64,000 nucleotides of DNA from an uncultured delta proteobacterium (GTDB taxonomy: Bacteria > Desulfobacterota > Desulfobacteria > Desulfobacterales > UBA2156): NCBI GenBank assembly GCA_963736855.1, contig CAVTQK010000009.1, forward strand, positions 320,001 through 384,000, read 5' to 3'. This document shows positions 17,725 through 38,081 of the stretch, one piece after another. Within the stretch, counting starts at the first letter, position 1, and every line of letters begins with the position of its first letter. The translations under genes were made by a program, and so were the position numbers. A model generated the notes under the pieces. The model worked only from the letters and a program-made list of their open reading frames with translations. It did not search any database and had not been told where the DNA came from.

Positions 17725-17761
17725 AAATTCAACCCGCTGATTTCAGCGGTTCTTATTTAAC

Positions 17762-18116: not shown

Positions 18117-18947
18117 TCAGTGCCGGTTGATGGGCACTCGGCCGGGATCACCCACGAACGGAAGGATCAGAAGGCGAGGCAGGGAAAGCTTTTGCGGATC
18201 ACGGAATTGAGACAGACCGATCACCATATCATTGTGCCCCTTGTCGGGCTGGTCTTTGTAGGTACCAAAAAGCCGATCCCACCAGGGCAGGTTGAATCCG
18301 TAGTTGCTGTTGGTCTCGCGGATGATGACAGAGTGGTGGACCCGGTGCATGTCCGGCGTTACCACGAGCAGCCGGAGTATCCGGTCCATTTTTTCTGGGA
18401 TGCGGATGTTGCTGTGATTGAACATGGAGGTTGCGTTGAGGACGACTTCGAATATCAGCACGGCCAGCGGTGGCGCTCCGAGCGCGGCCACGGCCGACAG
18501 CTTGATGGCCATGGACACAATGATTTCGATAGGATGAAACCGCAGCCCAGTGGTCATATCGAAATCCAGATCCGCGTGATGCACCATATGCAGCCGCCAA
18601 AGCGTTGGAATGGCGTGATGCAAAACATGCTGCGCATAAACCGTAAGGTCCAGCGCAATCACACCCGCAACGACCTGCATCCATTCGGACATGGATGTGT
18701 GATTGAGCAACCCCCAGTTCTGTTCGGACGCGATATGAGCCAAACCGATAGGCAGAATGGGAAAAATCAAAACTACCGACAAGGGATTCAAAACCACGAT
18801 GGTCAAATTGGCGAACCATCGTCGGACCTTGGAGGTAAGCAAGCGTCTTCTTGGAGCAAGGATTTCCAAAACAGCGAGTACGACAAAAATAACCATAAAC
18901 GCGCCGAATCGAACCACTGTTTCATTTGTCAGGAAAATACATTCCAT
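18117..18947 (-). CDS. sterol desaturase / fatty acid hydroxylase family membrane protein
   Basis: His boxes HVLHH, HMVHH, FNHSN, HRVHH; NSNYG..WDRLFGT. Confidence 0.9.
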   Translation of the reverse strand: MECIFLTNETVVRFGAFMVIFVVLAVLEILAPRRRLLTSKVRRWFANLTIVVLNPLSVVLIFPILPIGLAHIASEQNWGLLNHTSMSEWMQVVAGVIALDLTVYAQHVLHHAIPTLWRLHMVHHADLDFDMTTGLRFHPIEIIVSMAIKLSAVAALGAPPLAVLIFEVVLNATSMFNHSNIRIPEKMDRILRLLVVTPDMHRVHHSVIIRETNSNYGFNLPWWDRLFGTYKDQPDKGHNDMVIGLSQFRDPQKLSLPRLLILPFVGDPGRVPINRH

Positions 18948-18987
18948 TGCCTTGTCTTCGATAAGAATGGTGTGATTGCTTCTTCGA

Positions 18988-19335
18988 TTAAAAAGCGATG
19001 ACCTTTTCCGCCCTGACCGTAAGATCCGTCAATTCAATCAGAGTGCCGCGCCGCGCGCCCTCGGCGATTTCTTCATCCTTCATTCCCCTCGCGTCCATGC
19101 ACGTGCCGCACAGGATGACCTCGCCCTTGCGAACAATCGGTTTCAACATGCGTTCTATATTGTAGTACCCTTGAGGGGTCTGCTGTCCGGTCTTGGCGCA
19201 TAGAACGGCATCGCCCAGCAAGAAAATGGACAGTTCCACAGTTTCACGAGCAACAAGCTGGTCTGCCAAACGCAAAGCATTGTAGCTGCGCTCACTGCCG
19301 TATGGTGGATCGTTTAGGATGATGAGCATTTTCAT
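18988..19335 (-). CDS. DsrE-family protein (YchN-like)
   Basis: ILNDPPYGSERSYNALRLA, FLLGDAV, CGTCMDARG; GGAGGA RBS. Confidence 0.9.
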   Translation of the reverse strand: MKMLIILNDPPYGSERSYNALRLADQLVARETVELSIFLLGDAVLCAKTGQQTPQGYYNIERMLKPIVRKGEVILCGTCMDARGMKDEEIAEGARRGTLIELTDLTVRAEKVIAF

Positions 19336-19410
19336 TTTTTGTCCTCCAGAGTCGATAGAGATTTTCAACTTTCACAATCTATGTGGTCTGGCCTTACGCG
19401 AATGTGGTGG

Positions 19411-20109
19411 TTAAACCGTCGCAGTATCTTTTGACACCCGCGACACTTTCAGGAGCTTGGGAATGAAAAAGGAAAATATGAAAAGCGCAAGGGAGAGAAG
19501 GACCTTCCAGCTCAACAGCTCCTCCCAGCGGCCGGCGGCCCATATGTCCTTTATCGTTCCAACGAAAAAGGTAAATATGAAGGTGCCCACCATGATGCCC
19601 AGCGCCGTGCCGGAAAAGTAGTCCCAAAAACGCACCTTGGTCAGCCCCATGCCGAAATTCATTAGAGTAAACGGGAAATAGACCAGCCGCAAGTAAAGGA
19701 CCGTGGCAAAGCCGTTGCGCCCGATGGCGTCATCGTATCGTTTCAACCTGTTGCCGACGATGGAGGCGGCGAAATCCCGGCCCAAGTAACGCCCGATCAG
19801 AAAGGCGAGGCTGGCGCCGATCATGGCCGCAATCCAGACATATAGGAAGCCCCAATAGGGTCCGAAGATGGCGGCGCCCAAAGCCGTCAGAAGCGTGCCG
19901 GGAAGGAAAAGACACACACCGGCCGCGTAGATAAACACGAACGCCAATGGTGCCCATATTCCCGCGGCTTTCAAAAACAGCCCCAGTTGTTCGGCAGTGA
20001 GGTACTGTTTGGCTGGCGAAAAACGGACCAGGTAAATCGCCGCCACAACGAACAGGATCAGGATGGATACCTTCATCAGCGCGCTTTTTCTTTTTTCATC
20101 GGTTTGCAT
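19411..20109 (-). CDS. TVP38/TMEM64 (VTT/DedA superfamily) membrane protein
   Basis: LPGTLLTALGAAIFG, FLIGRYLGR, LRLVYFPF, GTALGIMVGT. Confidence 0.88.
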   Translation of the reverse strand: MQTDEKRKSALMKVSILILFVVAAIYLVRFSPAKQYLTAEQLGLFLKAAGIWAPLAFVFIYAAGVCLFLPGTLLTALGAAIFGPYWGFLYVWIAAMIGASLAFLIGRYLGRDFAASIVGNRLKRYDDAIGRNGFATVLYLRLVYFPFTLMNFGMGLTKVRFWDYFSGTALGIMVGTFIFTFFVGTIKDIWAAGRWEELLSWKVLLSLALFIFSFFIPKLLKVSRVSKDTATV

Positions 20110-20232
20110 GACGAAACCTTGTTGACACACCTTCCGGATGTCCACGGTCTATTGGATTATTTGTAAGCTCTTCGTCCATGCCTCGGATATATCTATGTAT
20201 TATCGTATTTGCTGCAAATGATCGTTTCAGGA

Positions 20233-20502
20233 TCAGCTTATTGCCACATGGCGACGGATCGCGGCCTCGAAAGCTTCCCCGCTGATCGGACAGCCCTGGA
20301 TGATAATCTCATCGGCAAGCATCAAGGCCGGTGCGGCAGGCAGACCGGATGCAATGAATTCCGTCGTGCTGTAGTATTCCCTGGGCTTTGACAGTGTCTC
20401 GATTTCCAAAGCGTATTTTTTTCCCAACCTGGGAAGCATCTCCATGAAGCCGCCTCAGGTTTTACCCATCGGCTCGTTTAAAAAGACGCGCAGCTTAACC
20501 AT
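20233..20502 (-). CDS. tsoC: NEPxGxxU-motif selenoprotein, copy 2 (89 aa, Sec16 at TGA 20455-20457)
   Basis: MVKLRVFLNEPMGKT-TGA-GGFMEMLPRLG reads in frame into ORF 20233..20445; hairpin TTCCCA-GGT-TGGGAA (20421-20435); paralogous to the upstream gene. Symbol recalled from the NCBIfam motif name, not searched. Confidence 0.85.
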
Positions 20503-20524
20503 TTTATTTCTCCGATCAGACGCA

Positions 20525-20845
20525 TTAAGGTTTCTTGAAAAGACGCCCCAAGATTCCTTTATGCGGTGGCTCGGGCTCGGCCAGACCCAACTGGCGGCAA
20601 ATGTGAACCTCCACCTCATGTTCGGACACATCGGCTCCTTCGACGACAACTTCATCGCCCACCATGACCGCCGGTGCCACGGGCAAATCTAGCTCGAAGT
20701 ACGCGTCGGTCTGATATTCCGCCTTGGCTTTTGAGGTGACGTCGATGTCGATGGCGTATTTTGCGCCCAACCTGGGCATCATTTGCTTGAAATGCTTTCA
20801 GGGTTTGCCGTTGGGCTCGTTAAGAAAAAACCGGACTTTGAGCAT
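20525..20845 (-). CDS. tsoC: NEPxGxxU-motif selenoprotein, copy 1 (106 aa, Sec16 at TGA 20798-20800)
   Basis: GAGGAG RBS; MLKVRFFLNEPNGKP-TGA-KHFKQMMPRLG in frame with ORF 20525..20782; hairpin GCCCA-GGT-TGGGC (20765-20777). Confidence 0.88.
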
Positions 20846-20878
20846 GATCATCTCCTCTATTGTTTGGTTTCTCATGGA

Positions 20879-22648
20879 TCACTGTGCGGAAACGGACCTC
20901 TTTAATTCGGCCATGCGGCTCAGGAAGGGTTCGGGAGGCAAAAAATCCACCAGGCGCAGCTCGGTGCGTTCTTCACCCCGCGCATCCAGAAATACGATGG
21001 TGGGGACTCCCTTGACACCGTATTGCCTCAACAGTTCCTCATGAAATGGGTTTCCTCCCTGGGTCACATTGATTTTAACCATTATAAAATCCTTTTGCCG
21101 CGCTTGCCGGACTACCTCGGGGTGATGAAAGGTCACATTTTCAAGCTCCCGGCACGGCGTGCACCAGTCGGCGTAAAAGTCGATGATGACCGGTTTCTTC
21201 TGCGCGGCCGCCTGCCGCAGGGTTTGTTCCGAATAGGTGTGCCACTCGATGCTTGGTCCGCGCATGGCCCAGGTGGTCACCCAAAAAGTGGCCAGCACAA
21301 TGCAGGCTGTTCCCACGAAGGTCTTGAGCCAGGGAAAGGCCCTGAAACTCGCCTGGTTTTTATCGAGCCAGCCCAGGTGTAACCCGGCGGCGAAGGCGAC
21401 CAAAACCGGCACAACAATTTTAAGCGCCTGGGGCAGGATCGGCCGAATGAAGTATGCCGCCATGCCAACCAAGACCCAACCCATGAGTTTTCGCACCCAA
21501 ATCATCCATCCGCCGGCCCGTGGTAGTCGCTGTAATTGACCGGAAAAGATCGCCAGCACGAAAAGGGGAAGGCCCAATCCCAGGCTTAGGACGAAAAAAA
21601 TCAAAAAACCAAGCCACGGGTTTCCCATCCCGGCCACCCAGGTAAGGAGGCCCAGCACGAAGGGGCCGATGCAGGGCGCGGCCACAACGCCAAGGGTGAG
21701 ACCCATGAACAGACTGCCGAAGTACCCGGTGTAGGATTTGCCGGCGGCCTGGGTCAGGACGCCGGGTAGGCGCAGTTCCCAAAGGCCAAAAAGGCTGGTG
21801 GCGAATAGGACCAGGATGCCGGCCACCAAGGTCAACACGATGGGATTCTGCAGCATGGCCCCCATCAACCCACCAGTTAGTGCGGCCACCACCCCCAAGG
21901 TTGAGTTTGTCAGAGCTAAACCCATCAGGTAGCAAATCCCATGCAAAACAAGTTTGACTTGGCCGGGCCTGTCTTGGGCTGTGCGGCCTCCAAAAAAAGA
22001 GACCGTGATCGGAATCATCGGATAAACGCAAGGAGTCATGTTCAGGGCCAGTCCGCCGGCGAAAATGGCCAAAAGGGTCCAAAGCATGGACCAACCCTGG
22101 AGGGAGCGGTCGCCCATAGGTTCATTTGACGCTTCGCCAAGCGATGTTAGTCCCGCCGGACTACTCGCGATTGGTAAACCCTGTTCCTGCCATTTTGGGA
22201 ATCCGTAGGGGTCGCGGTACACATTTTTATAACCAAGCGATGCGGCCACCCGGGCCGCCGAGTCGCTGCGGACTCATGTCAGCCCCGCTCAGTAAAAGAC
22301 AAGTACGCGCTCCTTGTCCGGGCCTAAAAATGTATTCAGTTCCCCGGCCTTGCGCCAACGCGCCCACCAAGTAGGCTCCATTGAAAAATTGAGCGCCCCC
22401 TTGATATGCCCTGTGCGATATTCCCACTCCTGGCGGGTGTCGATCAGCAGCAGTTCGGAGGGCTTTTTTTCATATCTTTCGGATAGCGCTTCGGTGGTGA
22501 TGATCTTGTACCCGCCGGCGTCAGCCTCGGCCATAACATCTTCCCATGTGGCCTGCCCGGGTGCGATGGGGCGTTGCGCGTACCAGACAATACCAATGGT
22601 GAACAATACGGCCGCCAGCGCGAGAAAATATGATCTTTTTATTTTCAT
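20879..22648 (-). CDS. tsoB: rhodanese / DsbD-transmembrane / thioredoxin fusion selenoprotein with two Sec (589 aa; TGA 22289-22291 and 22274-22276)
   Basis: ORFs 22289..22648 and 20879..22249 share a frame and join as VFY-U-AGLT-U-VRSDSAARVAASLGY at the rhodanese active-site loop; DsbD cysteines TPCVYP and APCIGP; C-terminal WCTPC; hairpin GCGGCC-CGGGT-GGCCGC (22242-22258). Confidence 0.88.
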
Positions 22649-22973
22649 GTCCGATCCCTGATCCCGCTACATTTTGCCAGATAGAAATGTATCCATTTGA
22701 GTTTTGTCGATAGCCACAATGCGAAAGGTGGCTTTTAACCGTCTCTTCTGAAAAGGAGTATTGATACTGATGGCAGTAATCCATGATCGTTCGGTACGCC
22801 GAAACAATCTTGCGGGTCATTTCAGCGCATGACTCCCTATCCTCGACGCATTTGTCCGGATGCCATTTGGTCACCAGTCTCCTGTATCTTGATTTGATCG
22901 ATGCCATGGTGGCGGTTTCCGGAAGCTCCAAAATTCTTTTTGCATCGATGATTTCCTGATATTTATGATCCAT
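22521..22973 (-). CDS. J-domain protein with an aberrant C-terminus that overlaps the tsoB-like gene
   Basis: 'IKSRYRRLVTKWHPDKC...IVSAYRTI' HPD J-domain; after about residue 83 the ORF runs 128 nt into the next gene. Confidence 0.75.
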   Translation of the reverse strand: MDHKYQEIIDAKRILELPETATMASIKSRYRRLVTKWHPDKCVEDRESCAEMTRKIVSAYRTIMDYCHQYQYSFSEETVKSHLSHCGYRQNSNGYISIWQNVAGSGIGHENKKIIFSRAGGRIVHHWYCLVRATPHRTRAGHMGRCYGRG

Positions 22974-23430
22974 CCTCGGCGATTCGTTTCCCTTCTCTCA
23001 AGAGTTTCGTGAGCAAAAATTTGGCCCCTCTGCGCGATAAACCAAGCCGTTCCGCCAATTCTTTATCGTTCAGAGTCCCATGCGTTTTTAAAAGCGTACG
23101 CACTTCCGCTTCCAGTTCCTCCAGCCAATCCTCAAACAGCACCAGCAGATCAGGATCGGCTATAGCCATTAGTTGTTTGGACTGCGCGACCTTGTCCACC
23201 AGGCTTTGGCACATCTGCGTTGGGTCGACACCTTCGCCCATGCACTCGGCCAGTCACAAGTGCACCATGCTGGACACCTTATCCCCCTCGGACTGATTGA
23301 TCAGGTTCAGAAGAAAACGCTCGCGGGCATTATCATCCAGGTCCGCAAGAAGACTTCCCGTGACAGTCGTGATTTTTGACAAGGCCTCTTCCGGAACCAT
23401 GCGGGCAATAATTTCAAAAAGCTCATCCAT
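22963..23430 (-). CDS. tsoA: LULAxC-motif selenoprotein with C-terminal winged-HTH-like segment (155 aa, Sec59 at TGA 23254-23256)
   Basis: GGAGG RBS; MDELFEIIAR...SSMVHL-TGA-LAECMGEGVDPTQMC in frame with ORF 22963..23241; hairpin at 23216-23244 with AGGTG loop. Confidence 0.88.
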
Positions 23431-23453
23431 AGGAATTGGTTGCCTCCTATTGA

Positions 23454-23819
23454 TTAAAAAGTTCTTCGTGTGGATAAAAGGTCCGTCGCCACATCGTTTA
23501 AGATTTTCAAGACATTCAGAATTCTTTCATCTGCCAATTCATAATAAATGAATGGTCCCTCGCGTTCCACCTTGACCAGCAGAGAGTGCTTCAATTCCTT
23601 CAAATGGTGGGATACCAGCGGTTGGGACAGATCCAATTCCTCGACAATGGCGGATACTGACTTCTTGCTTCCGCTGATGAGCACCAAAATTCTTAGGCGG
23701 TTGCAGTCCGACAGACTCTTGGCCAGAAAGGCTGCTCTTTGAAGCTGGGCAATATCCGACTGGCATCGAGTCAGAAACCCTTCGTTTAGATCCGCTGAAT
23801 TCCGCATGTCTTTGTCCAT
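23454..23819 (-). CDS. ArsR/SmtB-family transcriptional repressor
   Basis: KSLSDCNRLRIL...SVSAIVEELDLSQPLVSHHLKELK...VEREG. Confidence 0.92.
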   Translation of the reverse strand: MDKDMRNSADLNEGFLTRCQSDIAQLQRAAFLAKSLSDCNRLRILVLISGSKKSVSAIVEELDLSQPLVSHHLKELKHSLLVKVEREGPFIYYELADERILNVLKILNDVATDLLSTRRTF

Positions 23820-24781
23820 TATTCAACGACACTTCGGCATGTCTGATCACCTTTGCGGGTTTCAACATAGTGCGCGGCCGCCAAGGCCGCCGTACAACCA
23901 TCCGCGGCGGCAAGGACAATCTGGTTGGCGTATTTTTGCCGGAGGTCGCCCACGGCAAAAATGCCGGAAATGTCGGTTTCGCATTTTTCATCCGTGATGA
24001 CATATCCAGTACTGTTGACCTTGATCCCTGCGGGAACCAGTTGATTGTTCGGCGCAAAGCCGACAAAAATGAAAACGCCTTCGGTATCAAGATCCCGCTG
24101 ATCGCCGGTTTGCGTGTTTTTCAAGGAGATGTCACGGACGCCGTTGTCATCGCCATTGATTGTGGTGACGACCGTATTGTATATGATTTCAATCCGATGC
24201 TCGGCGAAAACGCGCTGCTGAAGGATGCGGCTGCCTCGAAAGGCCTCCCGTCGGTGAATGAGGTAAACCTTACGGGTGATTTTTGAAAGGTAAAGGGCAT
24301 CTTCCAGAGCTGTATCGCCGCCACCTACGACAGCAACGACTTTATCGCGGAAGAAGAAACCGTCGCAGGTCGCGCAATAAGAAACCCCCTTGCCGAAATT
24401 CTCGTTTTCGCCTGGTATGTTCAACTTTCGGGCGGTGCCGCCGGCTGCCAGAATGATCGCGTGGGCTTTTAAAAGAGTGCCGTCGGCAAGACGCACGGAA
24501 TGGTATTCAATTCCAGGTTCTGTCGCGATGGCCTCCTTTTCCAAAATCTCAAGGTTATACCGTTTGGCATGCTGCAGAAATTTATCGCAAAGATCGAAGC
24601 CGCCGATTTCAATAAAACCAGGATAATTCTCCACTTCCTTGGTGATCGCCACTTGCCCGCCAAAAACACCCCTTTCAATCAGCACGGTCTTCAGCGCCGC
24701 GCGCATGGCATAAATCCCAGCGGTTAAACCCGCGGGGCCTCCACCGACAATGATCAAATCGTAAAGCTGATTATCCGGCAT
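23819..24781 (-). CDS. trxB: thioredoxin-disulfide reductase
   Basis: GGGPAGL, ENYPG, SYCATCDG, GGGDTALE, FAVGD; start MPDNQLYD. Confidence 0.95.
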   Translation of the reverse strand: MPDNQLYDLIIVGGGPAGLTAGIYAMRAALKTVLIERGVFGGQVAITKEVENYPGFIEIGGFDLCDKFLQHAKRYNLEILEKEAIATEPGIEYHSVRLADGTLLKAHAIILAAGGTARKLNIPGENENFGKGVSYCATCDGFFFRDKVVAVVGGGDTALEDALYLSKITRKVYLIHRREAFRGSRILQQRVFAEHRIEIIYNTVVTTINGDDNGVRDISLKNTQTGDQRDLDTEGVFIFVGFAPNNQLVPAGIKVNSTGYVITDEKCETDISGIFAVGDLRQKYANQIVLAAADGCTAALAAAHYVETRKGDQTCRSVVE

Positions 24782-24830
24782 ATCGTCCTTCCTGTGCTTG
24801 ACCAATAAGAGGTGAACTGAATCAGTTAGC

Positions 24831-24877
24831 AAACAGCATATAGATATTTATTTATATGTTGTTTTAAATTTTGTCAA
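24831..24877 (-). promoter_or_regulatory. operon promoter (-35 TTGACA) overlapped by a 16-2-16 inverted repeat (candidate ArsR operator)
   Basis: AAACAGCATATAGATA-TT-TATTTATATGTTGTTT (24831-24864; arms match 14/16); TTGACA on the minus strand at 24872-24877. Confidence 0.72.
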
Positions 24878-25078: not shown

Positions 25079-26264
25079 CTATCCCTCGGAAGGGGCGGTC
25101 AGGGTCTCCCAGATATCTTCGACAAGGAGCGGATTGAAAATGCGGACGCCTCGGACGTTGAACCGCTGCTCGCCGTTATAGAGGACCGCGCCGGCCGTGA
25201 CCCGTTTGATTTCCAACGTCTGAAAACGCTCCAGTCCCTTGATGAAATCCACGGAAAACGTGCTGGCGGACTTGATCTCGACCGGCGTGAGCGCGCCCTT
25301 TTCCCTGATGAGCAGATCGACCTCGTTGCCGTGGGAGTCGCGGAAGAAATAGATCTCCGGCCTGATCCCCTTGTTGAGAGCGCCCTTCACGATGTCCGCA
25401 ATGATGAGGTTCTCATACAGATTGCCGCGCAAGGGATCGCGGGATGCCTGTTCCTGCCGTGTGGATGCCCAGCAGAAAGGCGGCGAGACCCACATCCGTG
25501 AAAAATATCTTGGGGGACTTGATCACCCGCTTTCGGACGTTCTCGAAAAACGGGGGCAGTTCGAACACGACATACGAGGCTTTCAGCACGGAGAGCCAGT
25601 TTCTGATCGTCGTGCTGGAAGCGCCCACGTCGTTGCCGAGCGAAGCGAGGTTGACGACCTGTCCCACCCGGCCGGCCAACAGGGTGAGGAATTTCTGAAA
25701 CTGCGACAGATCGCGCAACTGGATCAAGGCGCGCACATCGCGTTCGACGTAGGTTTGCAGGTAGCCGTTGAAAAACCTGCGCGGTTCGAGACCCTCTTCG
25801 TGAAGCCGCGGAAAACATCCGCGGCCGATCAGGTCGAAGGGGTCCCGTGCCGACTCATAACGGCGAAGTTCATGAAGGGAGAAAGGCCACAGGGTCAGCA
25901 TGGCGGTCCGGCCCGCCAGCGACTGGCTGATCGCCTCATGCAGTTGCGGCTGATGGCTGCCGGTCAGGATAAACCGCCCGCGTCTTCTGTTCTTGTCGAC
26001 CATTCCCTGGATGTAGGAAAGCAGAGCCGGGAGACGTTGCACCTCGTCCAGGATGCCGCCGCCTTCCATCTGGCCGAGGAATCCCCGCGGATCGGCTTCG
26101 GCCGCCATGCGGACATCCGGGTCTTCCAGGGAAAAGTACGGTTTGTCCGGAAACGTCATCCGGGCCAGCGTGGTCTTGCCCGATTGGCGGGGACCCAGGA
26201 TGGTCACCACGGGATACTCCGCGGCGGACCGGACCAGTTCTTCTGTGATGTCTCGAGTGATCAT
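25079..26264 (-). CDS. AAA+ ATPase with DUF4143 domain; one +1 frameshift near 25455
   Basis: GPRQSGKTT, LDEVQ, LTGS, SLAGR, YVERD, KSPKIFFTDVG; continues in another frame as LYEN...YFFRDSHGNEVDL...EIKS. Confidence 0.85.
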
Positions 26265-26525: not shown

Positions 26526-26567
26526 GATGCGGTGCAACGCAGCAGATGGACTTTTTACGAAGCCGTC
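26526..26567 (-). repeat. partial copy (one end) of the MITE at 54642-54794
   Basis: Reverse complement GACGGCTTCGTAAAAAGTCCATCTGCTGCGTTGCACCGCATC vs GATGACTTCGTAAAAAGCCCATCTGCTGCGTTGCACTGCATC (38/42). Confidence 0.85.
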
Positions 26568-26788
26568 AACTTTAAAGCGTTGTGGCTCTATCCTGATTCC
26601 TGCCGTACTCTCCATTCTCCTGAAAACTCACTTTTTCGTATAACTTATTGAATTCGTGGCTATAAAATGGCTTTTTGACCACGGAGCGGACTCCGAATTC
26701 TGCCGTTCTCCATTTTTAGAGCCGCCTTGTTTAATGCAGCCAGTGGTGGGATTGCATTCAGGTGCCCGTTTGATGGTCCGAAAATCGA

Positions 26789-26884: not shown

Positions 26885-27127
26885 GTGCCATTGAATGCCC
26901 AGGCAGACATACCTCGCTTAGTCCGCAGGCTTCGGGAACGAACCGGGCTCACCCAGGAAAAGTTTGCGGCCAAACTTGGCGTGACGTTCCCCACCATCAA
27001 CCGCTGGGAAAACGGCCGGGCCAAACCGTCGCCGCTGGCGTTGAGGCAGATTGAGAAATTGCTCCGGAGCTTGGGCGACCAGGGCAAGGATCTCTTGGAG
27101 GAGTTTTTCCCCGGAGAGAAGAGCTGA
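26885..27127 (+). CDS. Xre-family HTH regulator ahead of the R-M genes
   Basis: LRERTGLTQEKFAAKLGVTFPTINRWENG. Confidence 0.9.
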   Translation: MPLNAQADIPRLVRRLRERTGLTQEKFAAKLGVTFPTINRWENGRAKPSPLALRQIEKLLRSLGDQGKDLLEEFFPGEKS

Positions 27128-27202
27128 TATGGCCAAGGAAAACAGTGAGCTGCCGGCGCCCAGGGATGGTGAGGCGGCGCGGCTTGAGCTCAGACAGGTG
27201 GT

Positions 27203-29332
27203 ATGCGCATGAATAGTGACACCTTCAAGGACATCGAGAAGCTCGAATCCGACCTCTGGGAGGCTGCCGACAACCTGCGGGCCAACTCCAAACTGACCTC
27301 CAGCGATTACTTCATGCCGGTGCTTGGTGTGATCTTTTTACGTCATGCGACCAATCGTTTCGACGCAGCCCACCGACAGATCAAGGCCGACCAGACCGGC
27401 GGCAAGATGCCCAAGCGAAAGGTCCTGCCGGCCGACTACATCGCGCGTCGAGCACTTTACCTTCCTGAACCGTCGCGCTACGACTGGATCATGCAGCAGG
27501 CCGCCGTCAGCGGCGTCGACCTACCCCGGATAGTCACCGAGGCCATGACCGCCATCGAGGCGTCGTTCGAGCCGCTCGTGGGAATCTTGCCCAAGGATTA
27601 CGGCATCTTCGAGCCCAAGGTGCTCGAAGACCTTATGCGCCTATTCAACAGCGAACGCATCCGGCAGGCCAACGGCGATGTCTTTGGCCGTATCTACGAA
27701 TACTTTCTGGCGAAGTTCTCGATCCAGAAGGCCCACGACAACGGCGAGTTCTTCACGCCGTCCTCGCTCGTGCAGACCATCGTCAACGTGATCGAGCCCG
27801 ACCATGGTACCGTGTTCGATCCGGCCTGTGGTTCGGGCGGAATGTTCGTACAGTCGAGCCACTTCATCGAGCACGAGGGCGGCGACACGGCCAAGAAGGT
27901 CGTCTTCTACGGCCAGGAGAAGAACCGTGACACCATCCGCATCGCCAAGATGAACCTCGCGGTGCATGGGCTGGAAGGCAAGATCGCCGAGGCCATCACC
28001 TACTACCAGGACGAGCACAACCTCGCGGGCCAGTGCGACTTCGTGATGGCCAACCCGCCCTTCAACGTGGATCTGGTGGACGCCGAGCGCATCAAGGGCG
28101 ACCCGCGCCTGCCCTTCGGCCTGCCGGGCGTGAACAAGCAGAAGAAGGTCGGAAACGGCAACTACCTCTGGATCTCCTATTTCTGGGGCTACCTCTCCCC
28201 AAAGGGCCGCGCCGGCTTTGTCATGTCCTCCCAGGCCTCCAGTGCCGGACATGGCGAAAAGGAGGTGCGCCGCAAGATCGTGGAGACGGGCGACGTGGAT
28301 GTGATGATCTCCATCCGCTCCAACTTCTTCTACACGCGGACGGTTCCGTGTGAGTTGTGGCACTTCGACCGGGCCAAGCCGCCCGAGCGCAGGGACAAGG
28401 TGCTGATGCTCGACGCTCGCAATGTCTTTCGCAAGGTCACGCGCAAGATCTACGATTTTTCGCCCGAACAAATGCACAACCTCGCGGCGATTGTCTGGCT
28501 CTATCGAGGGCAGCAGCAGCGCTTTCTCTCTCTGGTGAAGGATTACCTCAGCCGGGTCTGCGCCGAGAGCGCCGTCATCCCTGGGACTCTGACATCCTTC
28601 CAAAACACGCTCGCGGATTTACGCGACAGCTTCGATGCGCTGGCCAAGGCGACGGCGAAACACGCCGAGCTCGATGACGCGAAAAAACAGGCGCTCGCCG
28701 ATGCCGTGGCGGAACTGCGCGAAGCCGACGCACTATACAAGACCGACGCGCAAAAACTCCTCGTGAGTTTCGCAGCATTCGGCCGCAAGCATATCAAGAC
28801 GCTGCCCGGGAATAACGACGCCCAGCACGCGGCACGCAAAGCCTTCGACCCGCATGCCGAGGCGATTCGTGGCCTCGCCAAGCAGGTGGACCTGCTCTAC
28901 AAGCTCGCCGCGCGCGTGGCGGACCTGGGCGCGGAACTGGCAGCGGAAGATACGATCTCCGCCGTTTACGACCGGCGCGCCACGGGGCGGCTGGTCAAGC
29001 AGCTCGACTCGGAGCGGAAGGCCACGGTCGAGCAGTTGAAGCGTGCCGTCTATTTCCACCGGCAGGTGGTGTGGTTGCAGGACCGTTTCCCCAAGACCGA
29101 GCTGCAAGCCGTGCCCGGGCTGGTGAAACTGGTGGACCGCGCGGAGATTGAAGCCGCCGACTGGAGCCTTACCCCCGGCCGCTACGTGGGCGTGGCTCCG
29201 CCCGAGGAGGACGAGGACTTCGACTTCGAGCAGACCATCCGCGACATCCACACCGAGCTGGCAGAGCACAACAAGGAGGCGGCGGAATTAGCGGCGAAAA
29301 TCCAGGCAAACTTCGAGGGGTTGGGGATATGA
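27203..29332 (+). CDS. hsdM: type I restriction-modification N6-adenine methyltransferase subunit with a long helical insertion
   Basis: LWEAADNLR, GEFFTP, DPACGSGGM, NPPF, SLTPGRYVG. Confidence 0.95.
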   Translation: MRMNSDTFKDIEKLESDLWEAADNLRANSKLTSSDYFMPVLGVIFLRHATNRFDAAHRQIKADQTGGKMPKRKVLPADYIARRALYLPEPSRYDWIMQQAAVSGVDLPRIVTEAMTAIEASFEPLVGILPKDYGIFEPKVLEDLMRLFNSERIRQANGDVFGRIYEYFLAKFSIQKAHDNGEFFTPSSLVQTIVNVIEPDHGTVFDPACGSGGMFVQSSHFIEHEGGDTAKKVVFYGQEKNRDTIRIAKMNLAVHGLEGKIAEAITYYQDEHNLAGQCDFVMANPPFNVDLVDAERIKGDPRLPFGLPGVNKQKKVGNGNYLWISYFWGYLSPKGRAGFVMSSQASSAGHGEKEVRRKIVETGDVDVMISIRSNFFYTRTVPCELWHFDRAKPPERRDKVLMLDARNVFRKVTRKIYDFSPEQMHNLAAIVWLYRGQQQRFLSLVKDYLSRVCAESAVIPGTLTSFQNTLADLRDSFDALAKATAKHAELDDAKKQALADAVAELREADALYKTDAQKLLVSFAAFGRKHIKTLPGNNDAQHAARKAFDPHAEAIRGLAKQVDLLYKLAARVADLGAELAAEDTISAVYDRRATGRLVKQLDSERKATVEQLKRAVYFHRQVVWLQDRFPKTELQAVPGLVKLVDRAEIEAADWSLTPGRYVGVAPPEEDEDFDFEQTIRDIHTELAEHNKEAAELAAKIQANFEGLGI

Positions 29333-30474
29333 CAAAACCAAAGAATAGTGGATCAGACACCTCCGATGCACGCATGTCGCGTGGACGCATCCGCAATGGC
29401 GCATCTTTCCCTGCGCCGCCTTCCCGCGCGGGATTACCTGCGGGTTACGCTGCATTGCTGGAAAAGATCAAAGAGCGTATCAGCACTGAGCGGCTCAAGG
29501 CGGTCATGGCCGCCAACTCCGCCATGGTGCTGCTTTACTGGGACATCGGAAACATGATTCTGGACCGGCAACAAAAGGAAGGCTGGGGCGCGAAGGTGAT
29601 AGACCGCCTTTCCGCAGACCTTCGCCGGGCGTTTCCGGACATGACCGGCCTGTCGCCCCGGAATCTCAAGTACATGCGGAGCTTTGCCGCTGCCTGGCCG
29701 GATGCGGCAATTGTGCAAGAGGCGCTTGCACAAATCACCTGGTATCATAATCTGGCGTTGATGGAGAAACTGGATACTCCTGAAGATCGCCTTTGGTATG
29801 CTGCAAAGACGATCGAAAATGGCTGGTCCCGTAACATCCTCGCTTTGCAGATTGAATCCCGCGCTCACGAACGCCACGGAAAGGCCGTGAACAACTTTGC
29901 CGTCACCCTGCCGCCCGCCGATTCCGACATGGCCGCCCAGGTTTTCAAGGACCCATACCTCTTCGACTTTCTCGGCACCGCCGATCCGCGCCGCGAGCGG
30001 GAGGTCGAGCAGGCCCTGGTGGACCACATCCAGCGATTTTTGCTGGAACTCGGGGCGGGATTTGCCTTCGTCGGACGGCAAGTCCATCTGGAGATCGGCG
30101 ACCACGATTTCTACGTTGATCTGCTGTTCTACCACCTGAAGTTGCGCCGCTATGTAGTGGTGGAACTTAAAGCAGTGCCCTTTGACCCGGGCTTTGTCGG
30201 AAAACTGAACATGTATCTTTCCGCTGTGGACGATCTGTTGAAGCATCCGGATGACCAACCGGCCATCGGCCTGCTCCTCTGCCGCTCCAAGAATAAGCTC
30301 ATCGTCGAGTATGCCCTGCGCGGCTTCACCCGACCCATCGGCGTGGCCGAATGGGAGACCCGCCTGACCAAGAGCCTCCCCAAGGAACTCAGAGGCAGCC
30401 TGCCGACCGTGAAGGAGATCGAGGCGGAATTGGCGGTGAAAATTCAGGAGAACGTCGAGGAGTTTGGAGCATGA
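29329..30474 (+). CDS. YhcG/DUF1016 PD-(D/E)XK nuclease-domain protein
   Basis: LYWDIG, WGAKVIDRLS, SPRNLKYMR, KDPYLFDFL, ELGAGFAFVGRQ, VVVELK. Confidence 0.93.
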   Translation: MTKPKNSGSDTSDARMSRGRIRNGASFPAPPSRAGLPAGYAALLEKIKERISTERLKAVMAANSAMVLLYWDIGNMILDRQQKEGWGAKVIDRLSADLRRAFPDMTGLSPRNLKYMRSFAAAWPDAAIVQEALAQITWYHNLALMEKLDTPEDRLWYAAKTIENGWSRNILALQIESRAHERHGKAVNNFAVTLPPADSDMAAQVFKDPYLFDFLGTADPRREREVEQALVDHIQRFLLELGAGFAFVGRQVHLEIGDHDFYVDLLFYHLKLRRYVVVELKAVPFDPGFVGKLNMYLSAVDDLLKHPDDQPAIGLLLCRSKNKLIVEYALRGFTRPIGVAEWETRLTKSLPKELRGSLPTVKEIEAELAVKIQENVEEFGA

Positions 30475-31605
30475 GATGGCAACTTCATCAGTTGCAGGAC
30501 CTTTGTGCCGAAATGACATCTGGAGGCACTCCGTCTACCTCGCAGTCTCAATACTACGGAGGGGATATCCCGTGGCTACGAACGCAGGAGGTCAATTTCA
30601 ATCGAGTTACCGACACAGAGATCACGATCACCGAGGACGGCCTAATCAACTCAACCGCGAAGTGGATTCCAGAGAACAGCGTAATCATTGCGATGTATGG
30701 GAATTCTGCAGGGAGAGTGGCCACCAACCAGATTCCACTGACTACGAACCAGGCGTGCTGTAACTTGATCGTTGACCCTCGAAAGGCCGACTACCGGTTC
30801 ATCTATTATCGGTTAATGCTCGACTATGACGTCCTGCATCAAATGGCAAAAGGCTCGGCTCAGAACAACCTCAATGCAGGCCAGATCAAGGCTTACGCAA
30901 TCCAGACGCCGACAGTCGAAGTGCAAGAGCGCATCGCCGACATCCTCTCCGCCTACGACGACCTGATCGAGAACAACCGGCGGCGGATGGCGCTGTTGGA
31001 GGAGGCGGCGCGGCAGCTCTACCGCGAGTGGTTCGTCCGCCTGCGCTTCCCCGGCCACGAGCACACCCGCATCACCAACGGTGTGCCGGAGGGGTGGGAG
31101 CGACAGCCCTTCGAAACAGCTCTCGTCCTTCAGCGTGGTTTCGACCTGCCTATTCAAGAATAGAGAAGATGGCGATGTGCCGATTTATGGCTCAACCGGC
31201 ATTAACGGATTCCACAGCAAGGCAAAAGTTACAGGTCCAGGTGTGGTGACGGGACGAAGTGGCACGTTGGGTGAGGTGCATTACATACCGCGTGACTTTT
31301 GGCCCTTGAACACAGCACTGTGGGTTAAAGAGTTTAAGCGTGTCACACCGCTTTTCGCTATGTTTTTGATGCGTGAGATGGACCTTAGGCAGTATAATGG
31401 TGGGGTTTCGGTTCCGACTCTCGATCGAAAAACGGTGCATAAGGCGGAAGTGTTGATACCTTCGAAGCGGCTGGTGATATCCTTCGAGGAGTTTGCCTCG
31501 CCACTTTTTCATCAGATCGGTACATTGACCGCGCAAACCGAGAAACTCCGCGCGGCCCGCGATCTCTTGTTGCCGCGCCTGATGAGCGGGGAGATCGCCG
31601 TATGA
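30471..31605 (+). CDS. hsdS: type I R-M specificity subunit; +1 frameshift near 31158
   Basis: SGGTPST TRD1, 'ERIADILSAYDDLIENNRRR' spacer, GRSGTLG TRD2, RDLLLPRLMSG end; split across ORFs 30351..31163 and 31081..31605. Confidence 0.88.
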
Positions 31606-31621
31606 TGGGAGCCACAGCGCC

Positions 31622-34600
31622 ATGATCACCGATATCAACAGCGAAGACCGCCTTGTCCAGCAGACCTTTGCGGACCACCTCCGCGACCGGCTCGGCTGGG
31701 AAAGCGTTTATGCTTACAACGCCGAGACCTTCGGGCCGCAGGGCACTTTGGGGCGGGCCTCCGAGCGCGAGGCGGTACTGGTGCGCGATCTGCGTGCGGC
31801 CCTTGGGCACCTGAATCCGGGCCTGCCCGAATCTGCCCGAGAACAGGCTGTCGAAAAGCTGGCTCGCATCGATTTTTCCCGTTCGCTCGTCCAGCATAAC
31901 CGCGAATATTACGGCTTCATTCGTGGCGGGGTGCCGGTGGAGTGGCGGGATGCAAAGGGCGAAACCCGGCACGCCCGGGCGCAGGTGATCGACTTTCGCA
32001 ATACCGGCCGCAACCGCTTCCTCGCCGTGCGCGAGCTCAAAATCCAAGGCGTACGGGTACCGCACTATAACCGGCGCGCGGACCTGGTGTGTTTCGTGAA
32101 CGGTCTGCCCATGGTCTTCATCGAGCTCAAGGCGGTCTACCGCAACATCCGCGCCGGCTTCGACGACAACCTGACCGACTACATGAGCGAACACAGCATT
32201 GCCCAGGCCTTTCATCATAACGCCTTTCTGGTGGTGAGTAACGGCGACCAGGCCCGCTACGGCTCGATCACCAGCCAATGGGAACACTTTGTCGAGTGGA
32301 AGCGAAACGCCGAGACGGATAAGGCGAGGCTGGATGCGCAGGCCCTCCTCGACGGCATGCTGGCCAAGGAACGGCTTTTGGACCTGCTTGAAAACTTCAT
32401 CCTCTTTGACGACAGCCGGGCGGGCGGTACGCGCAAGATTGTTGCGCGCAACCATCAGGTGCTCGGCGTCAATAGCGCCGTAGGAGCCGTGGTGCGGCAG
32501 GAGGAGCTCAAGCGGCAATTCCCGCCGACCGAGCGGCTGATTTCGTACCGTATGCCCAAACCGGAGTTCCTATTGGCCGCGGATGCGCCTTCGGCCGATT
32601 CGGCCTATACGACGGCCGCGCGATCCGATAACGCCAAGAACAATGAGCTGCCGCTGGTGAAGCGGGCCCATGAAGATCTGGGGCGCCTGGGTGTTTTCTG
32701 GCACACGCAGGGAAGCGGCAAGTCTTACTCCATGGCTTTTTTTGCGGAGAAGGTGCGGCGGGTGGTGCCCGGAAACTTCACCTTCCTGGTGATGACCGAC
32801 CGCGAGGACCTGGACGACCAGATCCGGCGCACCATGATCGGCTGCGGCATCACGGACGAGAAGACGCCGCGGGCAGGCTCAGGCAAGGAGCTTAATGAGA
32901 TCCTGCGCGCTAATCACCGCTTTGTCTTCAGCCTGATCCACAAGTTCAACCAGCAGGTTGTAGAGCCCTACAGCGAGCGCGACGACATCATCGTCATTTC
33001 GGATGAGGCGCACCGGACCCAGGCGGGCAGGTTCGCGCGCAACATGCGCCTGGCGCTTCCCAACGCATCGTTCATCGGTTTCACCGGCACGCCGCTCTTC
33101 AAGCACGACGAACTGACCAAGCGCATCTTCGGCGGCTACATCTCGCGTTACGACTTCAAGCGCTCCGAAGAGGATCAATTCCACCGTCAGGCTGGTCTAC
33201 GAGAACCGGGGCGAGAAGCTGGGAATCGCCCGGCTCGACCTGAACGACCGCATCGCCGACGCCGTCGAACAGGCCGATCTCGACCCGGATCAGCAAGCCC
33301 TGCTGGAGAAACTGCTCGGAAAGGACTACGAGGTGATCACGGCCGACGACCGTCTGGACAAACTGGCCGAGGATTTTGTGGAGCACTGCGCCACGCGCTG
33401 GGAGACGGGAAAATCCATGCTGGTGTGCATCGACAAGATCACCTGCGCGAGGATGTTCCAGCGCATCGAGCCGCGCTGGAAAGCCAAACTCGCCCGGCTG
33501 CAAGGGAGCATATTGGATTAAGGAGGCAACCCTTGCCGCTGCCAGCCGACACTGACCTCCGGGAGCGTTTGGGAGCGGAACTCGATGCCTTGCGGCGGAC
33601 AGGTGCGGTGGATGGAGAGTACGATCATCGAGATCGTCATCAGCGAGGCCCAGAACGAGGTCCGCGATTTTGCGAAATGGGGATTTGACATCATCCCGCA
33701 CCGGGTGGTGATGAAGACCGGCTTCGAGACACCCGACGGCAAGCGCGTGCCGGTGGAGGATGCCTTCAAGGACCCGCAACACCCTTTCCGCATCGCCATC
33801 GTCTGCGCCATGTGGCTGACCGGTTTTGACGTCGAGTGTCTGGCGACACTCTACATCGACAAACCCATGAAGGCCCACAACCTGATGCAGGCCATCGCCC
33901 GGGCCAACCGCGTGTTTCCCGGCAAAGACTGCGGCGTGATCGTGGACTACAACGGCATGCTCAAGAGCCTGCGCGAGGCCCTGGCGCAGTACGCCTTGGG
34001 CGACGAAGAAGGCGAAGGCGGGTCCGGCGGCATCGTGGCCCCGATCGAGGAACTGGTCGCGAGCCTGCTCCAGGCCATCGAAGCGGCCGAAAATCACCTG
34101 CTCGGCCTGGGCTTCGACTCCAACCCGGCTGAAGGGCGCGACCGGGTTTGACCGGATCGAGGCGCTGCGTGACGCGGTGGACGCACTCTACACCTCGGAC
34201 GAAGCCAAGCGCCGCTTCGAGATCATGGCTCGGCAGGTCTTCATCCGCTTCAAGGCCCTGCTGATGGAGCCGAGCGCGTTTGCCTATGCCGAGCGCCACG
34301 ACAACATCGAGGCCATCTACAAGAAGCTGCAGGACCGGCGCGACACGGCCGACGTGACCGAGGTGCTCAAGGCGCTGCATCGCATCGTCAACGAGGCGAT
34401 TCGCGCGGCAGCCCCGGGCGATGACCACGCCGAAGGGTTGACGGTGGACCTGAGCCGGATCGACTTCGAAAAGCTCCGGAACGAGTTTGCGAGAAAGGTA
34501 CGCCGCAAGCAGGCAGCTCTTCAGGACATCCGTGACGTGGTCGAAAAGAAGCTGGCGCAGATGCTCGCCCGAAATCCGATGCGGATGGACTATTACAAGA

Positions 34601-35034
34601 AGTACCAGGAGATCATCGCGGATTACAACCGCGAGAAGGACCGCGCAACGGTCGAAGACACTTTTGCGAAACTGATGGACCTTGCGGAAAGCCTCGATGC
34701 TGAACAGAGGCGGGCCGCGGAGGAAGGGCTGAGCGATAACGAGTTGGCGCTGTTTGATCTTCTGTTCAAGGAGAGCATCAGCAAGAAAGATCGTGAGCGT
34801 TTGAAGCAGGCCAGCCGGGGCCTGCTCTCGTCTCTGCGAGAGCTTCTAACGCCCATGCCGGGATGGCTGCACAACGTCACGACGCAGGCCGAGGTCAGAG
34901 TATTCATCCTCGATCGCCTGTACGATTCGCTGCCTCGTCCGCCATTCACCGACGATGAGACCGAGGATATTGCGTCCCGTGTCTATGACTATGTCTGGCA
35001 GAGAAGCGCCAGCGGAGAGCTGCTCGCCGCATAG
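31622..35034 (+). CDS. hsdR: type I R-M endonuclease subunit; five apparent +1 frameshifts (~33179, 33519, 33544, 33594, 34119)
   Basis: DLVCFVNGLP..IELK, WHTQGSGKS, DEAHR, FTGTP, MWLTGFD and QAIARANR spread across successive frames. Confidence 0.88.
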
Positions 35035-35094
35035 CGCCGTGAAAAAAGGGCGGTCAGCCTTGAACTACGCCGCTGGATATATGAAAAGCATACG

Positions 35095-35427
35095 ATGAAA
35101 GCAACGCTCAAGCCGTTTATCGGTAAATGGTTCATTGTGGAGATGGAGGCGTGGGACCAGGAATACGTCAATATGGAGGTTCCGGGACATTTCACATTCA
35201 AGAAAGACGGAACGGGACATTTTCAGTTCGGACTGGTCCAGGGGGAGATGGACTGCCGGCTGGAAAACATGGATGGTAAAGCACGGATCGACTTCTCCTG
35301 GGAAGGACAGGACGAGCTGGACCCCGTGAGCGGAAGGGGATGGGCCGTGATCGAAAATGAAGAACTGCACGGCCGGATCTTCTTCCACATGGGAGACGAT
35401 TCCACATTCCGGGCTATAAGATCATAA
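35095..35427 (+). CDS. hypothetical protein
   Basis: 110-aa ORF (GKWFIVEMEAWD...FSWEGQDE...GDDS) in series with its neighbours. Confidence 0.75.
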   Translation: MKATLKPFIGKWFIVEMEAWDQEYVNMEVPGHFTFKKDGTGHFQFGLVQGEMDCRLENMDGKARIDFSWEGQDELDPVSGRGWAVIENEELHGRIFFHMGDDSTFRAIRS

Positions 35428-35440
35428 AAGGCAAGCTTCC

Positions 35441-36595
35441 ATGAGCGAATACCAATACTACGAATTTCTCGCCATTGACCGACCGCTGACGGCGGATGAG
35501 ATGGCGGCGCTGCGGGCGATTTCCACCCGGGCGCGTATTTCGCCTGTGAGTTTTACCAATGAATACCATTGGGGCGATTTGAAAGCGAATCCGGAAGATC
35601 TGATGAAGCGGTTCTTTGATGCCCATGTCTATGTGGCCAACTGGATGACGGCCATATTCATGGTGCGGTTGCCCATCGAAGCGTTGCCGAAAGAAACGGC
35701 GAAGGCTTTAGCCGTGCCTTACACTTTGGATTTCAAGGCCACTCAAACCCATTGGATCATCGCATGGCATCTGGAAGAGTCCAAAAACTACGACCGCTTC
35801 GGCATGGAAGACGGCCGGGGATGGATGGCACGCCTGGCGCCGGTGCGGGACGAGTTGCTGCGCGGGGACATTCGCAGCCTGTATATCGGATGGCTGGCGG
35901 CCTTGTCCGAGAGATAATGGATGATGACGAATTGGAGCCCATCGCTGTGAATGGGCTGGGACAATTGACATCGGCCCAAAAGGCGCTAGCGGAATTTTTA
36001 GAGGTGGACCAGGACCTGCTGATCGGCGCCGGAATGGGTAATCCGGCTTCGCAAGATGAGGGGATATCCCAACAGCAGATGGATAAATGGATCGACGAAC
36101 TGCCCGACGATGAGGTAAAGGCGGTCCTTAAACAGCTCCTCAATGGCCAGGGACAGCAGGCCGAGCGGACCCTTAAAAACCGGTTTGCGGCATGGCGGCG
36201 TGGTTTGCAAAGCGATGACGGCAAGTCACCCCGGCGGTCGATAGGCAGACCTTTTGGCCAACGCCGGGACGGCTGAAAAGATCCGCCTGGAAAAGCAAAA
36301 TCGCGAAAAGCGGCAGCGGGAGGTCAAACGTCAAAAGGAACGCGAGGTATACCTTAAAAATATAGCCAAGGATTTTCCTAAGGCGTGGAAGTCGGTTCAG
36401 CGGACCGTCGAACGGGGATCGGGCTCGGCCTATGACGAGGCCTGCGGTGCTCTCGTCGATCTTTCCGAAGCCTATGCGCTTCACGCGAGCAAGGAGCGAT
36501 TCCAAGAGGAATTGAAAAAATTCATGGCCGACCACATGAGGCGCAGGGCGCTGGTCCAGAGACTGGTGAAAGCCGGCATCTGGAATGATAAATGA
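35441..36595 (+). CDS. hypothetical protein (MSEYQYYEF N-terminus), frameshifted near 35907 and 36250
   Basis: Three overlapping ORFs (35441..35917, 35752..36276, 36254..36595) read as one continuous protein. Confidence 0.7.
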
Positions 36596-36620
36596 GGCGG
36601 GTAGAATTTGGAGATAGCCG

Positions 36621-36977
36621 ATGTCCGGGTCGAATATCAAAACGGATAAAATTGAATGGTCGGGCCGTATCGTGGCTGTCCAGCCCCACATCCGGCTCAT
36701 GCGATCCTCCGATGAGCGGCACCACAGCTACCAGGACTTTGTGCTTCGTATGGACGGAACATGTGCCGGTGAGAGCGGCGAATTCATCATCGCCATCGGG
36801 AAGGCCGCACATCAAAAGCATCAGTTTCGCGTCGGTATGGAAGTGTGCGGCCTATCGAATCCTTTTCCCGATCCGCGAATGGAGATGACTGGATTTTACA
36901 AGACAAGCGGTCTTAACATACTGAAGAAGGTGGAAAATGGGTCACCTCCCGGTCCGCACGGAGGGGAAAGGCCATGA
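36621..36977 (+). CDS. hypothetical protein, possibly truncated
   Basis: GGAGA RBS; 118 aa; its stop overlaps the Fic start. Confidence 0.55.
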   Translation: MSGSNIKTDKIEWSGRIVAVQPHIRLMRSSDERHHSYQDFVLRMDGTCAGESGEFIIAIGKAAHQKHQFRVGMEVCGLSNPFPDPRMEMTGFYKTSGLNILKKVENGSPPGPHGGERP

Positions 36978-38041: not shown

Positions 38042-38081
38042 AATGGGTAACGAATTGGGTAACGATAGGAGATCGTAATCC

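Follow-up and report, generated by a model that had tools for sequence, protein, structure and literature searches.

A Tso operon with four selenoprotein genes and a predicted TsoR operator in an uncultured member of the Desulfobacterales

Organization of the locus

The subject of this study is a cluster of ten co-oriented genes on the minus strand of a 64,000-nucleotide stretch (the window) of contig CAVTQK010000009.1 from an uncultured delta proteobacterium of the order Desulfobacterales. Intergenic gaps range from -128 to 123 nt and the genes are, in the direction of reading, trxB, tsoR, tsoA, a J-domain gene, tsoB, tsoC1, tsoC2 and three encoding VTT-domain, DsrE-family and desaturase-like proteins. 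An earlier note on this DNA had described ten such genes and had matched four products to TsoA, TsoB and TsoC; both statements hold, and the gene that it called arsR is also tsoR. The cluster belongs to the named, curated Tso operon family, with the expected tsoA-tsoB-tsoC order and adjacency. The family (TsoA, B, C, X and Y; three selenoprotein genes plus adjacent ones) is tabulated in the available part of a 2026 review citing Haft and Tolstoy 2025 (PMC13188914); its proposed function is the export of electrons for dealing with reactive sulfur. The NCBIfam models are NF045707 (TsoR), NF045695 (TsoA), NF045694 (TsoB), NF045708 (TsoC), NF045809 (TsoX) and NF047643 (TsoY). Comparisons draw on a main set of 80 loci fetched with TsoB and on 251 genomes of the same order, sampled separately; the window's genome is 100% complete with 2.8% contamination. 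The core features, with model cut-offs in brackets, are:

24835..24860 (-) 26-bp palindromic operator, consensus AACATATAAA-N6-TTTATATGTT, predicted TsoR site, score 35.3
23819..24781 (-) trxB, thioredoxin-disulfide reductase, start ATG 24781, TIGR01292 359.5 (343.45)
23454..23819 (-) tsoR, ArsR/SmtB-type regulator, NF045707 155.6 (115)
22963..23430 (-) tsoA, 155 amino acids, LULAxC motif, U59 at 23254-23256, NF045695 215 (170)
23221..23240 (-) bulged hairpin of tsoA resembling a selenocysteine insertion sequence (SECIS), loop AGGTG, synonymous codons fixed
22719..22973 (-) J-domain gene, PF00226, truncated after about 85 codons, frame continuing into tsoB
22669..22718 (-) 3' tsoX remnant, last 16 codons, Sec-bearing part deleted; found by TsoX profile and DNA identity
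20879..22648 (-) tsoB, 589 amino acids, in-frame TGA at 22289-22291 and 22274-22276, NF045694 987.4 (805) and Pfam
22242..22258 (-) SECIS-like hairpin of tsoB, range covering both UGAs
20525..20845 (-) tsoC1, 106 amino acids, start ATG 20845, NEPNGKPU, selenocysteine codon 20798-20800, NF045708 151 (45)
20764-20778 (-) hairpin of tsoC1
20233..20502 (-) tsoC2, 89 amino acids, NEPMGKTU, selenocysteine codon 20455-20457, NF045708 119.1 (45)
20421-20435 (-) hairpin of tsoC2

Selenocysteine coding

The five in-frame TGA codons almost certainly encode selenocysteine (Sec, U) in four proteins. As the earlier note maintained, in-frame TGA is all that splits these genes: read as U, it restores TsoA, TsoB, TsoC1 and TsoC2 as whole proteins over the NCBIfam cut-offs, a gain in gene calling of four repaired genes, though the families were already curated. 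The machinery whose presence was to be confirmed is in the genome, with selA, selB and selD over cut-off, a tRNA-Sec (selC) and one TGA within selD itself. Among relatives the tsoC motif has TGA in 84 of 84 cases although the search pattern permitted Cys, the tsoA site is TGA wherever aligned (59 loci), and two TGAs are present in all 48 TsoB matches over cut-off in the order sample. In the 80-locus set 77 of 78 alignments show stop codons at the TsoB sites, the lone exception being a frame-shifted alignment, and neither TGG nor TGC occurs at a Sec site in the fetched loci.

Each gene carries the hairpin with a GGT-containing loop that the earlier note had described, 20-24 nt 3' of the nearest TGA, that of tsoA with a bulged stem. 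The bacterial SECIS rule, as given in the available text of PMC13188914, places the hairpin 16-37 nt after the UGA. In tsoB the distances are 21 nt (U125) and 36 nt (U120), both within this range, so one hairpin can serve both codons. Synonymous positions within the hairpins are constrained. In tsoA the codons GGC, GAA and GGT are fixed in 53/53 and GAC in 52/52, with variable synonymous sites on either side; GCC and GTG are fixed in 77/77 tsoB sequences; CCC is kept in 68/69 and AGG in 64/64 tsoC sequences. Most flanking sites are widely variable. With the bulge drawn, 99.2% of cells in the tsoA stem pair. At dG ≤ -3 a hairpin follows 80/84 tsoC and 35/78 tsoB sites, as against 86 of 1039 TGA stops of long open reading frames in the genome, taken as a control.

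Some observations count against this assignment. A strict perfect-stem rule finds the hairpin in 42/78 tsoB sequences and in none of 59 tsoA homologs, the latter missed because the stem is bulged. No compensatory base-pair changes were seen in the tsoA hairpin, where the support is synonymous-site conservation. In the 14 full-length TsoA database matches that could be aligned, the Sec position is W in all and C in none, and three TsoC matches also have W. These residues speak in favour of the TGAs being true stops or tryptophan codons, an explanation that we regard as extremely improbable given the uniform TGA at tsoC, tsoA and TsoB sites, the fixed hairpin codons and the existence of Cys equivalents. 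The latter, sought by aligning homologs as the earlier note proposed, are found for TsoC (P0129, P0164) and, as distant counterparts, in the rhodanese loop of L033 and L043, and are absent from those 14 TsoA matches. The database entries that have W in place of Sec (P0005-P0035, P0125, P0181, P0207) are probably genetic code table 4 gene calls on short contigs.

TsoB and the two TsoC proteins

TsoB comprises an N-terminal hydrophobic anchor, a rhodanese with U120-x4-U125, a DsbD-type membrane block (C207, C326) and a thioredoxin domain with C496xxC499. The DsbD membrane cysteines and the gamma CxxC are kept in 79 of 79-80 aligned homologs, and a third membrane cysteine, C239, is also conserved. 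The thioredoxin region has the DsbD gamma domain as its best PDB match (E 3e-18). The DsbD model covers residues 183-582 with a score of 258.6, under the cut-off of 330, the DsbD-type alpha domain being replaced by the rhodanese. By homology both terminal domains would be periplasmic. No publication on a DsbD-rhodanese fusion, or on an ArsR-rhodanese regulator, surfaced among the literature search results listed.

TsoC is predicted to adopt a thioredoxin fold. The TsoC1 model (predicted local distance difference test score, pLDDT, 92) has thioredoxins and SelW-like proteins as top matches, with Z of 9.6-8.8 and a root mean square deviation of 2.4-2.7 over 79-84 aligned residues; Foldseek matches are, with few exceptions, thioredoxins or fusions containing one, though at E > 0.001. 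PDB sequence searches with the TsoA and TsoC profiles gave nothing significant. Natural TsoC-VTT fusions occur at L062 (5939-6937) and L080 (from 1107), tying TsoC to the VTT membrane protein.

TsoC2 is 42% identical to TsoC1. The earlier note emphasized four selenoproteins where three are usual; four are present, and this is not special, as 17 of the 68 loci having room downstream carry a second tsoC (14 counted, L038 and L074 that were merged by script, and the divergent L057; the L045 copy is frameshifted). Tandem tsoC is rarer in the order sample, where three of the 55 TsoC-bearing genomes have it, the window's own among them. A quick tree over 92 columns, from which the broken rows L011 and L024 and the frameshifted second copy of L045 were left out, places 67/68 first copies on one branch (Shimodaira-Hasegawa-like approximate likelihood ratio test 100) and every one of the 17 second copies outside it. 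Because the tree parts the two sets, we take TsoC2, on sequence grounds, to be an old accessory subgroup. Recurrence in 17/68 loci and the separate subgroup rule out a unique fourth selenoprotein or a recent duplicate. That TsoC2 and TsoX are mutually exclusive alternatives is likewise ruled out, with both present in L041 and L045. The divergent TsoC-like selenoprotein of L057 (9119-9370; 39.1, under the cut-off of 45) possibly represents a third subgroup.

Truncated J-domain gene and tsoX remnant

The J-domain gene listed by the earlier note is indeed present; what had been overlooked is that it is cut short and joined, in a different frame, to the final 16 codons (50 nt) of tsoX. Of 2117 stretches from a six-frame translation of the window, this remnant scores best with the TsoX profile (E 0.001), and its DNA is 72-82% identical to tsoX ends in L037, L124, L111, L048 and L041. 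The window's J-domain gene is without the tail that its counterparts in L010, L015, L019 and L128 have. In L128 trxB-tsoR-tsoA-J-tsoX is intact and its alignment to the window jumps by about 477 nt at this point. A deletion of about 480 bp has probably removed most of tsoX and truncated the J-domain gene. Contigs of two sequencing runs are short pieces and none of those listed spans the J/tsoX junction, so an assembly error there is an alternative. Elsewhere in the same genome (G000:C21:764361; L086 1495-2075) an intact tsoX, with UxxC, is followed by a Sec-DsrE gene, and no operator site was found in the fetched L086 locus. A search for TsoY in this genome, which matched nothing in controls either, found none.

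TsoR, TsoA and the operator

The palindrome at 24835-24860 is the best site in the genome, and the window lay outside the training set. It lies before trxB, which places that gene inside the regulated unit. TTGACA occurs directly upstream of it (24872-24877), with TTGACA/TATAAA spacing of 15 nt; a promoter scan did not pick this pair. Among relatives the operator precedes the first gene in 51/60 regions, a count from a matrix trained on those same regions, some of them cut by contig ends. It lies between trxB and tsoR in 0/8, and 600 shuffles gave 0. It is present in 27 of 30 TsoA-anchored loci (some duplicating training loci; trxB leads the three in which it is missing), in 9/12 further regions and in only 2 of 19 tsoB loci that lack tsoR. 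A second operator stands ahead of an SQR-like gene in L088. The other operator-like site of the window's genome (C21:288292, score 23.6) lies in AT-rich DNA that separates unrelated genes and is taken as a chance occurrence.

The tsoR gene is directly upstream of tsoA in 30/30 TsoA-anchored loci. No conserved Cys is found in the invariant or 90% columns of 60 TsoR sequences, and no conserved His was seen in the C-terminal helix. TsoA has an invariant triad of U59, C63 and C74. Its C-terminal part resembles a helix-turn-helix (HTH), with weak Pfam matches under cut-off, and the model is of low confidence (pLDDT 77, predicted template modelling score 0.41), its matches being mostly HTH proteins with a best Z of 6.6; the N-terminal part, as part of this whole-protein model, has no fold match. 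TsoR, without a conserved Cys, would bind the palindrome, and TsoA, with its fixed Sec/Cys/Cys triad, may act as its sensor. A possible arrangement, though a rather doubtful one, is that a Sec-based sensor, TsoA, controls the Cys-less repressor TsoR, or binds DNA with it through an HTH of its own, at a common 26-bp operator, the two proteins forming a portable switch for sulfur-transfer cargo, be it TsoB/TsoC or Sec-DsrE. If true, a selenoprotein would help to regulate transcription in bacteria, upstream of an exporter of the DsbD class with a diselenide rhodanese output, and a sensor role for TsoA would widen the range of known selenocysteine functions. No selenoprotein sensor of this kind was met in the available part of the review (PMC13188914) or by a literature search.

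Modules and cargo among relatives

In the order sample TsoR and TsoA coincide in 44 genomes, with 48 carrying each; TsoB and TsoC coincide in 50, with 55 carrying each, the TsoB count including seven partial matches. TsoR and TsoA occur together with TsoB in 34 genomes, TsoB without them in 21 and they without TsoB in 10. There are, then, two separable modules, TsoR+TsoA and TsoB+TsoC. Of the ten genomes with the first module only, seven have a Sec-DsrE gene as cargo, two a broken tsoB, and one locus was not fetched. Three of the seven also have DsrF/H-like genes, and the cargo in G002 (L088) further includes dihydrolipoamide dehydrogenase (lpdA), TsoY and a GcvH-related gene. In four of the 19 tsoB loci without tsoR (L023, L033, L042 and L043) an ArsR-rhodanese fusion, with Cys at both Sec positions of the rhodanese, directly precedes tsoB. 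DsrE, rhodanese and lipoate-binding proteins make up sulfane-sulfur networks (PMC11094781, in part), and these swaps to Sec-DsrE and ArsR-rhodanese point to sulfane sulfur.

The tsoR-tsoA pair heads Sec-DsrE and DsrF/H-like genes at L088 (G002), L089 (G004), L090 (G005) and L129 (G134); in G004 tsoR has been lost and tsoA is frameshifted. The Sec-DsrE of these four loci matches no NCBIfam model. At L022 (10888-11712) a GcvH-related protein is fused to a HUIPC-type thioredoxin-like part.

Genomic context

The remaining features of the operon and its left edge are:

19411..20109 (-) VTT-domain (TVP38/DedA-like) membrane protein, PF09335
18988..19335 (-) DsrE-family protein, CGTC (cysteine form), PF02635 72.8 bits
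18117..18947 (-) sterol desaturase/fatty acid hydroxylase family membrane protein, PF04116
17649..17724 (+) tRNA-Asn, left edge of the variable region

VTT-domain and desaturase/hydroxylase genes are found at 26 and 25 of the 80 tsoB loci, respectively. The window's type of DsrE is rare, with fragments only at 2/80. The operon trxB is the second copy in the genome; the other, 67% identical, is elsewhere on contig C9.

The tso operon is located in a variable region. Same-genus synteny stops at about 17725-17729, the 3' end of tRNA-Asn, in four of five genomes, the contig of the fifth ending earlier; in G003 tso lies about 13.6 kb past the same tRNA-Asn. No second copy of the tRNA-Asn end or att repeat was found in the genome, and none of the 11 neighbouring genes scanned on the right side is an integrase. 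A two-way terminator-like hairpin (17734-17749) directly follows tRNA-Asn, about 370 nt past the last operon gene. On the other side are an AAA_14/DUF4143 ATPase gene (25079-26264, minus strand) apparently split by a frameshift near 25413-25495, with a second related copy on C15; a dispersed repeat of 45-55 bp (about 26526-26582) that this genome and those of G002, G004 and G005 carry in dozens of copies; and, at 26885-38570 on the plus strand, an HTH gene, a type I restriction-modification cluster whose hsdR is broken into several pieces, a DUF1016 nuclease, Fic and RhuM-like genes, where GC content reaches 0.61.

Proposed function and alternatives

What might such an operon do? We favour, tentatively and at somewhat less than an even chance, a relay from TrxB through TsoC and the membrane cysteines of the DsbD-type block to an exported diselenide rhodanese with sulfane sulfur as its substrate. 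TsoR, sitting on its palindrome, would repress trxB and the genes downstream until the U59/C63/C74 site of TsoA sensed an inducer and lifted repression. NADPH would reduce TrxB, and TrxB would feed the cytoplasmic, thioredoxin-fold TsoC1 and TsoC2, which would reduce the C207/C326 pair of TsoB; electrons would then pass to the exported C496xxC499 domain and on to U120-x4-U125 of the rhodanese. The substrate would be extracytoplasmic sulfane sulfur, such as polysulfide, protein persulfides or thiosulfate-type compounds. TsoC has a single Sec, hence a resolving partner may be needed, and TsoC2 or TsoX could fill that role. The relay, sketched in the earlier note, fits the anatomy as judged from sequence and model: the DsbD membrane cysteines and CxxC are conserved and TsoC has a predicted thioredoxin fold.

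Several observations weigh against this interpretation. It is uncertain whether TrxB could turn over TsoC directly, given a GxxU site with a single Sec and no CxxC; only 13/80 tsoB loci include trxB, and two the window's DsrE type. A hydropathy scan left the number of TsoB membrane helices unsettled, with the consequence that the exported position of the rhodanese relies on homology. On the regulatory side TsoR occurs without TsoA in 4/48 genomes, the TsoA model is low in confidence and the operator count has the circularity stated above.

Genes of the ArsM type and for chromate resistance also recur near tso, a further point against sulfane sulfur, and the same relay might instead serve the handling of metalloids or heavy metals (As, Sb, Hg, Cu or chromate), with the TsoA triad binding the ion. 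Selenoprotein genes of the ArsM type come after tsoA in G052 and after tsoC in L085 and L022, ChrB and ChrE genes lie beside tso in L055/G003, NCBIfam labels TsoR a metalloregulator, and the ScsB class of DsbD derives from a copper-sensitivity suppressor operon (PMC3322552, in part). Yet no metal exporter is among the common neighbours of the 80 loci, the alternative cargo is Sec-DsrE in 7/10 genomes, and TsoR has neither a conserved Cys nor a His in its C-terminal helix; we consider this reading unlikely. Sulfurtransferase folds are able to carry selenium, and each core part of the operon contains Sec. A role in selenium handling, by reduction of selenite or elemental selenium or by selenium transfer, the Sec-rich genes responding to selenium supply, would accord with that and with the selenium that rides on such folds in the accessible part of PMC9369223. 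The selA, selB, selD and selC genes, however, are at other places in the genome, and no operator above threshold was listed in their vicinity; a selenium-acquiring pathway that itself needs five Sec residues would, besides, be poorly designed, and we hold this role to be improbable. We judge similarly improbable a general envelope thiol repair or oxidant defence in an anaerobe, acting on no specific sulfur substrate. DsbD and ScsB do feed periplasmic repair enzymes and peroxiredoxins (PMC3322552, in part), and desaturase-family and J-domain genes accompany the operon, but such a function leaves the rhodanese at the output and the DsrE cargo swap unexplained and sits poorly with a patchy distribution, TsoB being over cut-off in only 48/251 genomes.

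The sulfane-sulfur relay and the proposed switch lend themselves to experiment, given a defined operator, a candidate sensor with three fixed residues, cargo swaps towards sulfane sulfur and cultured carriers, which among related loci include Desulfoprunum benzoelyticum DSM 28570 and Desulforhopalus sp. IMCC35007.

Comparison with known systems

The core genes pass the curated Tso cut-offs, and their motifs and Sec counts match the table in the available part of the review (PMC13188914). The window differs in having two tsoC genes, a leading trxB and a tsoX cut to a remnant, the intact tsoX lying on C21 beside Sec-DsrE. Relative to that part of the review, our additions are the 26-bp operator before trxB, the tsoX remnant with its deletion of about 480 bp, and the TsoR+TsoA and TsoB+TsoC modules.

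SqrR/BigR persulfide-sensing repressors resemble TsoR in the ArsR fold, a palindromic operator and sulfurtransferase cargo, whereas they sense through two cysteines of their own (PMC9774590, in part) and TsoR has none conserved and travels with TsoA; the BigR model scores 43 on TsoR, under its cut-off of 155. The sHdr networks (PMC11094781, in part) share DsrE, DsrF/H-like, dihydrolipoamide dehydrogenase and GcvH-related genes with what lies under tsoR-tsoA in same-genus genomes. Unlike those networks, the recurring tso neighbours include no sHdr genes and the output of the window's operon would be reductive and of DsbD type.

Proteins of the DsbD class take electrons from cytoplasmic thioredoxin and have periplasmic alpha and gamma domains, with the alpha domain differing between classes (PMC3322552, in part). 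TsoB shares with DsbD, ScsB and CcdA a membrane block with two Pro-Cys sites and has a C-terminal thioredoxin gamma domain, and is set apart by its N-terminal di-Sec rhodanese, which occupies the place of the alpha domain of DsbD and ScsB.

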